This document shows, in pieces, positions 4,161 to 27,000 of a DNA stretch of 64,000 bases. The notes beneath the pieces are model-generated. The model saw nothing but the letters and a program-made list of their open reading frames with translations, had not been told where the DNA came from and made no database searches. Position numbers and translations under genes: made by a program. The DNA is taken from the NCBI GenBank assembly GCA_963666315.2, contig CAXXHG010000043.1, positions 640,001 through 704,000 of the forward strand, in the 5' to 3' direction. The DNA is from Candidatus Binatia bacterium (GTDB lineage: Bacteria; Desulfobacterota; Binatia; Bin18). Within the stretch, counting starts at the first letter, position 1; each line of letters begins with the position of its first letter.

Positions 4161-4212
4161 ACAAGTAGGGCTCCGTTCCGAGGCCCGGCTTCCGTCCGTT
4201 TCGACAGAGTTT

Positions 4213-4239
4213 CAAAATGCGCAAAATGCGCAAAATGCG
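4213..4239. repeat. 9-bp tandem repeat x3
   Basis: caaaatgcg x3, intergenic. Confidence 0.85.
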
Positions 4240-4323
4240 AAGGGTGTGTAAGGATGCGAAGAAGGAAGGGTAGGAGGGTTACACCGAGGCGCGACCCATC
4301 GCGCCTCGGCTTCTTTAGCGGGC

Positions 4324-5169
4324 CTATGCCGCCTCGCGGAGCGGGAGGACAATATCGGGCTCTTCTGCAGGGATACCCGTCTGGATCGCTTTGCGCAGAC
4401 GCTCGATCGCACGGGTACGGATCTGGCAAATTCGTCCCTCTGTGAGCTGCCATAATTCGCCGACCTCGCGCAGCGTCAGACCTTCATAATACGACAGGGT
4501 AACCACTAAGCGTTCTTGGTCTGGTAGTTTTTCTATTGTCGCCGCCAATTTTTCAATCAGATCTTTATTCTCAAAAGTGGTTTGCGGATCCTGGAAGAGG
4601 CTCAGCATGCTTTGCCCCTGGGTTGGGGTTGCAATGCCTTCATCCGAAGCAAGGGAGAGGTCTTCCAGGTTTAACAGGGTGGCTTCATTCACGCTCTGAT
4701 TGACTTGGTAATATTCTTTGAGCGATACGCCGTGTTCAGATGCAATCTCCTGCGGATCGGCATCGCGACCGAGACGAGCAGCCAGATTGACCTTGGCGGA
4801 GCTCATTTTTCTTCCCCACGAGCGAACCGAACGGCTGGTCCAGTCGAGAGACCGGAGATATTCCATGATCTCGCCATAGATCCGGTGCCGTGCGTAGTCC
4901 TGGAAGACAACGCCACGCCCTTCGTCATAACGTTGCGCCGCTTCGAGCAACCCTACGACGCCTGATTGAGTCAACGAATCCAGCTCGATGCGATGACGTG
5001 GCAGCCGACGGTGCACTCGGTCGGCCATTTGCCGCACGAGTGGCAAATAGGTGTCTATCAGTTTTTCTCGCGCCTTAGCCGTGAGCCGCTTCTTGGTTGG
5101 TTTGGCTTTTTTGCGAGATTGAGCTTGCCGTGGGGACGTTGCGCCGGCGGCAGATGAAGTAGTGGACAT
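4324..5169 (-). CDS. fliA: FliA/WhiG family sigma factor (sigma28)
   Basis: YLPLV, SGVVGLLEAAQRYD, RIYGEIMEYLRSLDW, LSYYEGLTLREVG...TEGRICQ; ATG 5169 has GGGAG RBS. Confidence 0.92.
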   Translation of the reverse strand: MSTTSSAAGATSPRQAQSRKKAKPTKKRLTAKAREKLIDTYLPLVRQMADRVHRRLPRHRIELDSLTQSGVVGLLEAAQRYDEGRGVVFQDYARHRIYGEIMEYLRSLDWTSRSVRSWGRKMSSAKVNLAARLGRDADPQEIASEHGVSLKEYYQVNQSVNEATLLNLEDLSLASDEGIATPTQGQSMLSLFQDPQTTFENKDLIEKLAATIEKLPDQERLVVTLSYYEGLTLREVGELWQLTEGRICQIRTRAIERLRKAIQTGIPAEEPDIVLPLREAA

Positions 5170-5245
5170 GAGGCTCCCCCTATGAGTGGTGTCAGTGTAG
5201 CCATGCGAGACGCACGCTTTCCGGAACTGGAAAAGGGGCGAGGAT

Positions 5246-5340
5246 CGCCTGCCAGCCCTGCGCCCGTATCCCTTTGTATCAGGACGTAGGCCAGTAGCTT
5301 TGCGTCCCACCCTTTCGAGTGGTTTGCCATTATCAAGCGC
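5246..5340 (-). ncRNA. c-di-GMP-I (GEMM-I)-type riboswitch, C92G variant
   Basis: Minus strand CGCUUGAUAAUGGCAAACCACUCGAAAGGGUGGGACGCAAAGCUACUGGCCUAC...UACGGGCGCAGGGCUGGCAGGCG: GAAA tetraloop, receptor, and P1 CGCUUG/CAGGCG. Confidence 0.88.
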
Positions 5341-5351
5341 GAGGAAAGAGA

Positions 5352-5367
5352 AGCAAATGGCATGCCG
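5352..5367 (-). promoter_or_regulatory. sigma54 promoter for riboswitch-fliA
   Basis: CGGCATGCCATTTGCT (GG-N10-GC); predicted TSS near 5341, at the riboswitch 5' end; tgtcac...gtgaca inverted repeat at 5441-5466 may be an activator site. Confidence 0.75.
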
Positions 5368-5545
5368 AATTCAGCGAACCAAGAAAAGTAGGAATTTCAA
5401 CGGGTTAGAAATTGTTCCAAAAATGAAATCGGCAATTTTTTGTCACTATCTGTCGTAATTGTGACACTTAATGTCAATCAGCATGTATTTCTAATTGCCT
5501 TTCCCGGATAGGATCTCTATAAAATGGCCTAAGGAGGGGAGAAAT

Positions 5546-7300
5546 ATGCCACGAGAGAGTCGCGCAGAATACGGAATAAAGTCTGAAAAAAACGTCCCAG
5601 CTATTATGCGGGATGGGACGACGTTATATGCTGACGTTTATCGACCTGATTCCGCAGGGCGGTTCCCCGTTATTTTGCTTCGCCTCCCGTATGGCAAACA
5701 ACTGGCGGAGGTCTTTGGCGACCATGAGTATTTCCCTGCTCGTGGCTATGTTGTCGTCGTCCAGGATGGCCGAGGCCGGTTTGCATCCGAGGGCGAATAT
5801 TATCCGCTTATCGACGAAGCACAAGACGGATATGACACAGTCGAGTGGGCGGCCTCGTTACCGTACGCAAACGGCATGGTCGGCACGCAGGGCCAGTCAT
5901 ATCTTGGGGCAACGCAGTATCAACTTGCGCCTACTCGGCCACCGCATCTCCGGTGTGCCTTTCCCGTGTCCGCTGGGGCAGATTACCACCAAGGTTGGGT
6001 ATACCACACCGGCGGCGCCTTCTCTCTGGGCTGGCAAATACCGTATGCCATATTCCTCGCCCGCAATACGATTGATCGCAAAGGAATAAAGGACCAACTT
6101 TGGCCCAAAGTCAGGCCGGATCTTTTGCGTTCGATTAATTTCGCTAATCCGCTCTGCCCAGAAGCGTATCAACGCCTGCCGCTCATGTATTGGGCCGATC
6201 TTCTTGGAGAAGTCGCGCCGTATCTGCGCGATTATTTTACTCATCCCGACGAGGGGCCGTATTGGTGGCCGATTAATATTGAACGGCAGCACCACAACAT
6301 CAGTATTCCCATGTACCACGTTAGTTCGTGGTATGACATTTTCCTGCGCGATGCGCTGGTCCACTTCTGCGGTCTGCAGTCGCGGGCCATGACGCCGGAG
6401 GCACGAGGCGGGCAAAAACTGCTCCTTGGGCCGTGGGCGCATCTTTTCCCCTACACGGCCCCGATTTCCGGTGGGACCGGCGATATTGATTTTGGTCCGA
6501 ATGCCGCTATTGAGCTGCACGACACCCAGCTGCGTTGGTTTGACTATTGGCTCAAAGGGATAGACACGGGGATTGGTGAAGAGGCGCCTATTCGGCTGTT
6601 TGTGATGGGCACAAATCAATGGCGGGATGAATATGAATGGCCGCTGGCGCGCACTCGTTACATGCCGTACTACTTCCATAGTCAGGGCAACGCGAACAGC
6701 CTGAACGGCGATGGTGGGCTGAGTGCTGAACCGCCCCAAGATGAACCAAAGGATCATTATGGATACGATCCTGCTAATCCAGTTCCGACGTGTGGCGGCA
6801 ATACCCTAATTATTCCGGTCGGTGTAGCAGATCAGCGCGAGGTCGAAAGCCGCCGGGACGTTTTGGTGTATACGGGCGACCCTTTAGAAGCACCGCTTGA
6901 AGTGACCGGGCCGCTGAAGGTTGTCCTAAACGCCTCTTCTTCCGCAATCGACACCGACTTCACCGCTAAGCTGGTCGATGTCCGTCCGGATGGCTATGCC
7001 CAAAACATTGCTGATGGAATTTTGCGAGCTCGGTATCGTGAGTCATTGAGTAATCCTAGCCTCATGACACCAGGAGAGCCGTATGAGTTCAGAATAGATT
7101 TATGGGCGACCAGTCATGTTTTTCTACCCGGTCATCGGTTGCGGGTAGAGGTTGCATCGAGTAACTTCCCGCGTTTTGACCGCAACCTAAACACCGGCGG
7201 TGATCAAGCAACCGGGACGCAGTTTCAAACCGCGCAACAGACCGTCTTTCATAACAGCCGATTTCGGTCGCATATTTTGTTGCCGGTTATTCCGTCGTAG
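5546..7300 (+). CDS. CocE/NonD family hydrolase
   Basis: MRDGTTLYADVYRP, RLPYGK, GQSYLG nucleophile elbow, WYD, GPWAH, SSNFPRFDRN. Confidence 0.95.
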   Translation: MPRESRAEYGIKSEKNVPAIMRDGTTLYADVYRPDSAGRFPVILLRLPYGKQLAEVFGDHEYFPARGYVVVVQDGRGRFASEGEYYPLIDEAQDGYDTVEWAASLPYANGMVGTQGQSYLGATQYQLAPTRPPHLRCAFPVSAGADYHQGWVYHTGGAFSLGWQIPYAIFLARNTIDRKGIKDQLWPKVRPDLLRSINFANPLCPEAYQRLPLMYWADLLGEVAPYLRDYFTHPDEGPYWWPINIERQHHNISIPMYHVSSWYDIFLRDALVHFCGLQSRAMTPEARGGQKLLLGPWAHLFPYTAPISGGTGDIDFGPNAAIELHDTQLRWFDYWLKGIDTGIGEEAPIRLFVMGTNQWRDEYEWPLARTRYMPYYFHSQGNANSLNGDGGLSAEPPQDEPKDHYGYDPANPVPTCGGNTLIIPVGVADQREVESRRDVLVYTGDPLEAPLEVTGPLKVVLNASSSAIDTDFTAKLVDVRPDGYAQNIADGILRARYRESLSNPSLMTPGEPYEFRIDLWATSHVFLPGHRLRVEVASSNFPRFDRNLNTGGDQATGTQFQTAQQTVFHNSRFRSHILLPVIPS

Positions 7301-25281: not shown

Positions 25282-27000
25282 ATGAGTCGGACAATTGAAC
25301 GACGCCACTACGCTGAGATGTTTGGCCCGACGACGGGCGATCGGCTCCGGTTGGCTGACACCGAGTTGATCATCGAAATTGAGCAGGATCACACCGTATA
25401 CGGAGATGAGGTCAAGTTCGGTGGGGGCAAGGTGATACGCGACGGTATGGGCCAATCGCCTCTCCACACCTCTGCTCAGGGTGCTCCCGACCTCGTTATT
25501 ACGAACGCGGTTATTCTTGATCACTGGGGCATAGTCAAAGCCGATGTCGGGATCAAAGATGGGCGTATTTGCGGTATCGGCAAGGCCGGGAATCCATTGC
25601 TCATGGATGGAGTCTGCCCAGAACTCGTGATTGGGCCTGGCACAGAAATTCTCGCAGGGGAAGGCAAGATTCTTACTGCTGGCGGACTGGACGTGCATAT
25701 CCATTTCATCTGCCCCCAGCAGATTACCGAAGCACTCGCCTCGGGCGTGACGACGATGATAGGCGGTGGCACTGGTCCGGCCACCGGTACGAATGCGACG
25801 ACGTGCACACCCGGGGCGTGGAATATCGCCCGTATGTTGGAGTCGATTGAACACTATCCGCTCAATTTCGGCTTTCTGGCTAAGGGTAACGCCTCTCGAC
25901 CTGAGGCCCTCCATGAGCAGATCGAAGCCGGGGCGGTAGGCCTCAAGTTGCATGAAGACTGGGGCTCGACTCCTGCGGCTATTGATACCGCTCTCTCGGT
26001 GGCAGACGAACACGATGTCCAGGTCGCCATACACACCGACACGCTGAACGAGACCGGCTTTGTTGAGGATACAATCGCCGCGTTCAAAGGCCGTACCATA
26101 CATACCTACCATACTGAAGGAGCCGGCGGCGGGCATGCTCCCGATATTATCAAGGTGTGTGGATTGCCGAATGTACTACCGTCTTCAACAAATCCGACCC
26201 GGCCCTTTACCGTCAACACAATAGACGAGCATCTGGATATGCTTATGGTCTGCCACCACCTCGACCCAGACGTCCCTGAAGACGTGGCCTTTGCCGAGTC
26301 CCGCATTCGACCCGAGACGATAGCCGCTGAGGATGTCCTGCACGATATTGGGGCCTTTAGTATGATGGCATCTGACTCGCAAGCCATGGGTAGAGTCGGA
26401 GAAGTCATTATTCGGACGTGGCAGACCGCTCACAAAATGAGAGTTCAACGCGGCCGACTTTCAGAAGAAATCGGCCAGAATGATAATTTTCGGGTCAAAC
26501 GCTATGTGGCAAAATATACCATCAACCCGGCATTAGCCCATGGGATTGCGAGCCATGTCGGTTCGGTTGAGGCTGGCAAACTGGCAGATCTGGTGCTCTG
26601 GCAGCCCGCATTCTTTGGAGTCAAACCCGACATTGTTTTAAAAGGCGGTTTTATCGTCTGGGCAGCAATGGGTGATGCCAATGCGTCGATCCCGACCCCA
26701 CAGCCGGTATTTGGGCGGCCTATGTTTGGACACTTCGGGCGCGCACCGGCAACGCTTTCGTATAGTTTCGTCTCGCGTGCAGCCTATGACCGTGGGATTG
26801 CTCAGCAGCTGGGCCTGCAAAAACAGGTCATGCCTGTACAGGACTGTCGGAGCGTGCAGAAAAAGGACCTGGTGCATAATCAGCTAATGCCGCATATAGA
26901 GGTCAACCCGGAGACGTATGTGGTGAAGGCCGACGGCGAGGTGCTGACGTGCGAGCCTGCCCGAACGCTGCCCTTGGCCCAGCGCTATTTTCTTTTCTAA
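25282..27000 (+). CDS. ureC: Urease alpha subunit
   Basis: [27 protein letters not shown]-terminal AQRYFLF. Confidence 0.98.

Follow-up and report, generated by a model that had tools for sequence, protein, structure and literature searches.

A derived G at the ligand-pairing position of a c-di-GMP-I riboswitch, private to one strain, upstream of a FliA/WhiG-family sigma factor gene in a Candidatus Binatia genome

The closest described counterpart of the RNA considered here is Vc2 of Vibrio cholerae (RF01051), the ligand pocket of which is lined by G14, G21, C46, A47 and C92 according to the accessible text of PMC9049102. In the accessible parts of PMC5888326 and PMC6140456, G20 is described as contacting the Hoogsteen edge of one ligand guanine and C92 as forming a Watson-Crick pair with ligand G-beta. 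The same scaffold is found in the GEMM-Ib riboswitches of Geobacter, which bind 3'3'-cGAMP and in which, as far as the accessible part of PMC6140456 goes, a single ligand-contact base has changed. There A replaces G20, a change that many riboswitches of the lineage share, and C92 is kept. Engineered Vc2 mutants at G20 and C92 (PDB 3MUM, 3MUR and 3MUT) indicate, in the sources accessible to us, that changes at position 92 alter both affinity and specificity. The double mutant G20A/C92U binds c-di-AMP, and its affinity for c-di-GMP is no better than 4900 nM as against 0.011 nM for the wild type (both quoted in the accessible text of PMC9049102). Two further variants, c-di-GMP-I-GGC (RF03167) and UAU, belong to the same clan and are named by their three contact bases, the RF03167 consensus reading GCGAA where that of RF01051 reads GCAAA.

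Here we describe a c-di-GMP-I (GEMM-I) aptamer that has G at the base equivalent to C92, in a 64,000-nucleotide stretch of a Candidatus Binatia bacterium genome (the whole of this stretch is referred to below as the window, and positions are counted from its first letter). The RF01051 match lies on the minus strand at 5338..5248, spans the family model from end to end (positions 1-87 of 87) and scores 67.9 bits in cmscan (E = 3.6e-11; the gathering score is 35 bits), with one pair flagged as non-standard. It is the single GEMM-I hit in an assembly of 4.99 Mb, 47 contigs and 92% completeness. The hallmarks of the family can be read directly in the sequence, namely the motif GGCAAA, a GAAA-capped hairpin, GACGCAAA and the receptor CCUAC/UACGG, and the GAAA loop and CCUAC...UACGG align to the RF01051 consensus as a GNRA tetraloop with its receptor. 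P1 joins CGCUUG (5334..5339, minus strand) to CAGGCG (5246..5251, minus strand) in six pairs, which run, for 5339-5334 with 5251-5246, C-G, G-C, C-G, U-G, U-A and G-C; it thus includes one G-U, and C 5251 pairs with G 5334 as in the family consensus. This register is shared with 69 relatives; in relatives it reads G-C-C-G, and the second C has as its partner the conserved G of the P1 5' strand.

cmscan aligns this end without gaps and sets the window letters '...GCU G G C AGG' beneath the consensus '...GcU g C C gaa', so that the first C of the consensus CC (model position 83) corresponds to a G at 5252. We take model position 83, and hence window position 5252, to be C92 of Vc2, by a count from Vc2 numbering that puts G20 at 5328 and A47 at 5301; at both of the latter the expected ligand-contact base is present. 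The assignment of 5252 is supported by its fit with the positions of A47 and G20 and with the pocket bases listed in the accessible text of PMC9049102. The aptamer with its loop and receptor, the fully paired P1, the coordinates of the three specificity bases and the replacement of C92 by G are all as the original prediction, made from the window letters, had described them.

Set beside Vc2, the window aptamer has the same fold, P1, GAAA hairpin, receptor, G20 and A47, but differs in the G at its ligand-pairing base and in one G-G mismatch in P2. It also differs in its surroundings, since it stands before a FliA/WhiG-type sigma factor gene, behind a sigma-54-like promoter candidate and in a genome in which no flagellar genes were found. 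An identity as a 3'3'-cGAMP riboswitch (GEMM-Ib) is ruled out by G rather than A at position 20 (5328), and, in contrast to the GEMM-Ib change, the change in the window is private to one strain. The c-di-GMP-I-GGC class can likewise be set aside, as the best match is to RF01051 and position 47 (5301) is A and not G. Moreover, the G-A-G triple matches neither GGC nor UAU, and those families are conserved whereas G92 is not; the engineered Vc2 mutants described in the accessible sources carry U92 and A20, whereas the window has G92. By descent the window RNA is a true c-di-GMP-I family member whose orthologs have C, but it lacks one defining feature, C92, and may not work like a member.

Two aptamers of sister genera, each near position 1501 of its locus (L017 in G035 and L020 in G030), have A at position 20 and read AAAAGCAAA and AAGAGCAAA; they are candidate 3'3'-cGAMP-type (GEMM-Ib) switches within the window's family. 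Elsewhere in the window, positions 25435-25732 (minus strand) gave an Rfam match to the Helicobacter 5' ureB sRNA, at 78.5 bits and with many non-standard pairs. As that sRNA is antisense to ureB, the match is probably a conserved urease beta-subunit coding sequence rather than an sRNA.

The base at position 92 was surveyed by reading the fifth base from the 3' end in full-length RF01051 hits with retrieved DNA, an unbiased sample of 70 natural GEMM-I aptamers taken from a pool with about 180 further RF01051 hits listed or counted. C is found in 69 of the 70, the window being the sole exception: hits from the genus and family have C in 29 of 30 cases, and the further hits from the class and phylum in 40 of 40. 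A wider scan, in which an IUPAC pattern requiring G at position 92 was applied to one genome per species across about 185,000 species, returned nine stretches, at a sensitivity such that the pattern recovers 41 of the 70 sampled aptamers when C or G is allowed and misses about four in ten. Six of the nine have C at the position by cmscan and had been matched out of register. L109 is ambiguous, a one-base insertion giving a better P1, and L117 is a degenerate aptamer (49.8 bits, four broken pairs). This leaves L116, at 72.7 bits, as the only other clean G92 aptamer in the scan; it reads UGGCAAG, with a P1 of GCUUG/CAAG. Taken together, scan and survey make G92 very rare, though not unique.

The host of L116 (G364) has a genome of 7.6 Mb with 21 GEMM-I hits, in which position 92 is C in 18 and G, U and A in one each; the last two are L128 and L136, one with U (68 bits) and one with A (46.9 bits). 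Sporadic variants of every kind occur at position 92. The L116 ortholog in another genome (G365), the aptamer of which is 90% identical, reads UGCCAAG and so has C. On the minus strand of L116 (6571-7290) the aptamer has a good sigma-70-type promoter, TTGACA ... TATTAT, and stands before a gene for a 139-aa protein with a signal-peptide-like start and without an NCBIfam match.

C stands at position 92 in all three leaders orthologous to that of the window, the aligned leaders having a mean column identity of 85%. Of the two from other species of the genus, G024 reads UGCUAGG and G020 UGCUCGG, with U at position 93 forming a G-U pair that tops P1. The third, L151, was the single contig recovered by a metagenome scan for further orthologs; it comes from a G020-like strain and reads the same as G020 at position 92.

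Variation among closely related strains was examined in assembled contigs of 75-550 nt from four public sequencing runs of four studies (X1 to X4), over window positions 4300-5600; the alleles in such contigs are unphased, and their depths are not true frequencies. Position 5252 (minus strand) is polymorphic. The C allele occurs in all four runs, with a depth of 2 out of a total of 4 in X1, 5 of 9.27 in X2, 11.7 of 11.7 in X3 and 5.76 of 5.76 in X4, and the window's G is found only in X1 (2 of 4) and X2 (about 4.3 of 9.27), runs of two different studies, either of which may be the source sample of the window assembly. C-bearing contigs diverge from the window by about 2-4% in X3 and X4 and by up to about 8% overall. 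For example, there are 13 differences in the 548 places of the X4 contig spanning 4766-5313, and 13 in 367 for one X3 contig. A short contig of a second strain in X1 and X2 differs from the window at just three sites, 5227, 5252 and 5263. At each of these G024 and G020 agree with the second-strain contig against the window, and X3 and X4 carry the same alleles as that contig; the states seen in the window are therefore derived.

One of these sites, 5263 (minus strand), is a second derived change within the aptamer, G for U. Here G024 and G020 read GGTCGC and all four runs show C>A on the plus strand, and with the window's G a G-U pair of P2 becomes the G-G mismatch marked as non-standard by cmscan. 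Since G at 5252 occurs in two runs and C in close strains, the G is real but private to one strain. The original prediction had called for base 5252 to be confirmed in sequencing data, and the G allele in contigs of X1 and X2 indicates that it is no assembly slip. It had also raised the possibility of altered specificity, to be given up should every orthologous leader have C92 or the reads show C. C is indeed found in three of three orthologous leaders, and a C allele in four of four runs; G92 is therefore not a conserved variant class here. Contig depth over the aptamer core (5268-5355) rises from about 10 to 120-570 in X2 to X4, a peak that was not used as evidence and that probably reflects other organisms of those samples whose aptamer cores have words in common with the window. 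In the RNA runs X18-X20, only 0.07-0.11 of the sampled words of the window stretch are present.

The gene that follows the riboswitch (4324..5169, minus strand) is intact, without stops, and encodes a 281-aa sigma factor of the FliA/WhiG family that matches TIGR02479 at 209.4 bits (cut-off 189.6) and contains Pfam sigma-70 regions 2, 3 and 4 (r2, r3 and r4). A ribosome-binding site, GGGGGAG (5174..5180, minus strand), is separated by 4 nt from the ATG at 5169-5167; G024 has it too, and in G020 and L151 it is deleted or changed. Just after the stop codon an 11-bp GC-rich hairpin (4284..4309), listed by the scan on the plus strand and, being a palindrome, folding in the same way on the minus strand, is likely to be the terminator of the riboswitch-sigma unit. 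The description 'upstream of fliA' in the original prediction is borne out as regards the protein family but not as regards flagella, for neither FHIPEP/FlhA nor a flagellin N domain was found in the window's genome (G000, 92% complete). With no flagellar genes found in the genome or beside the gene, the neighbours of which are a peptidase and a monooxygenase, a strict identity as flagellar sigma-28 (FliA) was rejected, and the sigma gene does not appear to be flagellar in any demonstrable sense. FlhA was found in 6 of 61 relatives and was not found in G030, G031 and G032, sister genera that keep a 58-59% identical sigma gene. The only member of the genus with FlhA, G001, has two matches of identical score 30 kb apart (G001:C1:3133087-3135081 and 3163395-3165389), which suggests a recent duplication or a repeated island.

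Riboswitch and sigma gene occur in the same 3 of 28 genomes of the genus, namely the window's, G024 and G020. Accordingly the riboswitch is present in 2 of the 27 other genus genomes, both times as an ortholog at the same locus. In the 16 sigma loci scanned from other genera and families, no GEMM-I came up ahead of the gene at E values as high as 0.1, and no sigma gene was found beside the other riboswitch loci (L002-L030); among the genomes searched, the pairing is therefore confined to these three. The sigma gene is broken in G024 by one frameshift and a TAA stop, and in G020 by two frameshifts and two TAG stops; its start region is deleted in G020 and L151, and in the second strain of X1 and X2 there is an 8-nt deletion inside it. 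The aptamers have fared similarly, with AAAA in place of the GAAA loop and an A-C mismatch in G024, and several broken pairs in G020 (48.8 bits). The locus thus has every appearance of a relic, a unit mostly lost in the genus and reduced to a pseudogene in two other species.

Upstream of the aptamer, a candidate sigma-54-type promoter, CGGCATG-N4-TTGCT (5352..5367, minus strand), places the GC of its -12 element some 12 nt before the 5' strand of P1. It has two mismatches to TGGCACGNNNNTTGCW, a level at which the window holds 19 matches against 11.8 expected from shuffled sequence, and the motif alone is not significant. Comparison with the orthologs is more favourable to the sigma-54 promoter that had been predicted here: G020 has a near-perfect copy, TGGCACGCCATTTGCC (TGGCACG-N4-TTGC), at the same column, and rpoN is present in the window's genome, and these stand against the commonness of two-mismatch motifs, about 12 per shuffled window. 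In G024 the motif is degraded, the GG of the -24 element being lost. No sigma-70-like site was found in window positions 4200-5600. About 90 nt upstream of the sigma-54-like motif the orthologs share a palindrome, GGCAAT-N-ATTGCC, which could be an activator site; in the window (about 5430-5445, minus strand) its left half reads GACAA.

Downstream, the short hairpin GGCGA-UCC-UCGCC (5237..5249, minus strand; -6.6 kcal/mol alone) has a 5' arm that overlaps the P1 3' strand and is followed by CC and then by a run of four U (5231..5234, minus strand) that is conserved in all orthologs. The element at 5249-5231 was therefore correctly predicted, and the arrangement, a 5' leader with a candidate platform overlapping P1, resembles that of riboswitches of the Vc2 type. 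The window leader folds at -40.6 kcal/mol with the hairpin and at -38.5 kcal/mol with P1 enforced, values that have to be read with the qualification that the minimum-energy fold shifts with the chosen 3' end and that thermodynamic folding cannot decide function. The 5-bp hairpin, with only four U, is not listed by the terminator scan. In G024 and G020, by contrast, the minimum-energy leader fold is a 14-16-bp helix followed by UUUU, built from the P3 3' strand (AAGGGGAUAUGGUCGC in G024) and a complement just after P1, and in G024 this terminator fold reaches -43.9 kcal/mol against -31.9 kcal/mol with P1 enforced. Since the long helix and the aptamer are mutually exclusive, ligand should block termination, giving an ON switch. 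The ON switch of the original prediction consequently fits the folds in its logic, but the window hairpin is weak, and the complementarity behind the long terminator is largely gone there. The expression platform has turned over between species, with a 14-16-bp terminator in G024 and G020 and a short local hairpin in the window.

As to the second messenger itself, the window's genome has four GGDEF genes, two of them broken by stops, and one EAL, and neither PilZ nor a CD-NTase (SMODS-type cyclase) was found in it at 92% completeness. Of the two GGDEF genes without stops, one combines GGEEF with the usual NRR. The other (G000:C40:20183-20635, minus strand) has an intact GGDEF motif with NW replacing the conserved NR of the nucleotide-binding helix. 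The EAL (G000:C18:27415-28554, minus strand) follows closely after a stop-interrupted GGDEF stretch of the same strand, and the two together look like a partly decayed GGDEF-EAL gene. Hypr GGDEF enzymes are marked by Ser/Thr at a known motif position, and this residue is absent from both unbroken genes. The search for divergent cyclases that had been proposed thus yielded no CD-NTase and no Hypr residue. On this gene content, c-di-GMP signalling in the window's genome is thin.

We consider it reasonably probable that the C92-to-G change is a recent and probably disabling substitution in a decaying locus. The ancestral unit would have been an ON switch, in which the c-di-GMP-bound aptamer, with P1 and P2/P3 folded, lets transcription run on, and in which a terminator would form without c-di-GMP, in G024 and G020 by consuming the P3 3' strand. 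The aptamer of this strain has since acquired two derived substitutions, C92 to G and U to G at 5263, and a weak 5-bp hairpin with four U stands in place of the long terminator. G92 would remove the Watson-Crick pair to the ligand, the P2 mismatch would add to the damage, and the RNA would no longer sense c-di-GMP at physiological levels. The weak hairpin would then pass polymerase, so that the sigma gene would be read independently of ligand, probably by leaky read-through, and such read-through would fit its intact frame. The locus as it now stands would represent a step in the loss of a unit already gone from most of the genus. Family membership, the register, the derived and polymorphic character of G92 and the decay in relatives are shown by the sequences, whereas lost binding and the current default of the switch are what we infer. 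The single loss-of-function mutation that the original prediction offered as an alternative accords with the decay of the whole locus in relatives.

Several observations sit less comfortably with decay. The aptamer is otherwise sound, at 67.9 bits and with its GAAA loop, its receptor and a P1 of 6 bp in order, and the sigma ORF is unbroken; a freely decaying unit might be expected to look worse. In addition, one of the two aptamer substitutions falls on one of three contact bases, for which the chance under neutrality is roughly 6%, a figure that must be discounted for the fact that the window was picked out because of base 5252. Finally, the same substitution, C to G at position 92, has arisen independently in L116.

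It is conceivable, if rather unlikely, that the riboswitch still senses c-di-GMP with lower affinity and a raised switching threshold, either through a non-Watson-Crick contact of G92 or through pairing of C 5251 with the ligand while G92 is bulged out. Both natural G92 cases read G-G-C, so that a C is available one base further along, but the required shift of register would cost P1 its conserved topmost G-C pair. The otherwise intact aptamer and sigma ORF would suit a retained function, as would the near balance of P1 and hairpin (-38.5 against -40.6 kcal/mol), which resembles that of a working switch, and the two stop-free GGDEF genes and one EAL that remain. Single C92 mutants are reported to keep nanomolar binding. 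With a wild-type Vc2 affinity of about 0.011 nM, moreover, a large loss could still leave useful binding, and even the G20A/C92U double mutant remains at 4900 nM (both values quoted in the accessible text of PMC9049102). For C92G itself a literature search found no affinity value, the primary mutagenesis paper being outside its reach. Against a weakened sensor stand the conservation of G92 in no ortholog or sister strain, and its accompaniment by a second, pair-breaking change in P2.

Far less credible is the proposal that G92 is a natural G-A-G variant with a new ligand, which would be a cytosine-containing cyclic dinucleotide or a purine read on its Hoogsteen edge. Precedents for such a shift come from G20A, which gives 3'3'-cGAMP binding (PMC6140456, accessible part), and from G20A/C92U, which binds c-di-AMP (PMC9049102, accessible text). 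There are also two independent G92 cases in otherwise good aptamers (67.9 and 72.7 bits), and NW replaces NR in one of the two GGDEF genes that are free of stops. However, in neither lineage does G92 extend beyond a single strain or species, the orthologs having C; each genome has one G92 RNA only; and the regulated gene is a pseudogene in relatives. Nor does the genome (92% complete) offer an evident source of such a ligand, with no CD-NTase (SMODS) gene found and with neither unbroken GGDEF gene having the Hypr Ser/Thr at what we take to be the diagnostic motif position. We give equally little credence to the broader notion that C92-to-G is a recurrent retuning of the GEMM-I fold, seen in the window and in the unrelated genome of L116, that yields a working G-A-G class. 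Were it true, G92 would pair with a cytosine-containing cyclic dinucleotide, or both ligand purines would be read on their Hoogsteen edges. Binding of another dinucleotide, and nothing short of it, would make this RNA important.

It is hardly believable that the organism really has C and that the G read at 5252 is a mistake of sequencing or assembly: the assembly is a draft of 47 contigs and the C allele co-occurs in the same runs, but the window letter is found in two runs of two studies, at the depths given above for X1 and X2, and is accompanied by two further private changes, at 5227 and 5263.

Returning to a recent and probably disabling substitution as the preferred reading, we regard the leader with its G92 as mostly a known riboswitch class caught soon after a ligand-contact substitution, at a locus that is being lost, and not as a new class. 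Its value would lie in the comparison that it allows. Three species display different stages of decay, in an aptamer base, a tetraloop, helix pairs, a terminator, a promoter and a coding frame, and the expression platform has been rebuilt between species, which gives the locus some use for studying how riboswitches die. Above all, the coexistence of G92 and C92 alleles in closely related strains is a clean natural experiment, in which two natural alleles, set side by side, would give the cost of C92G.
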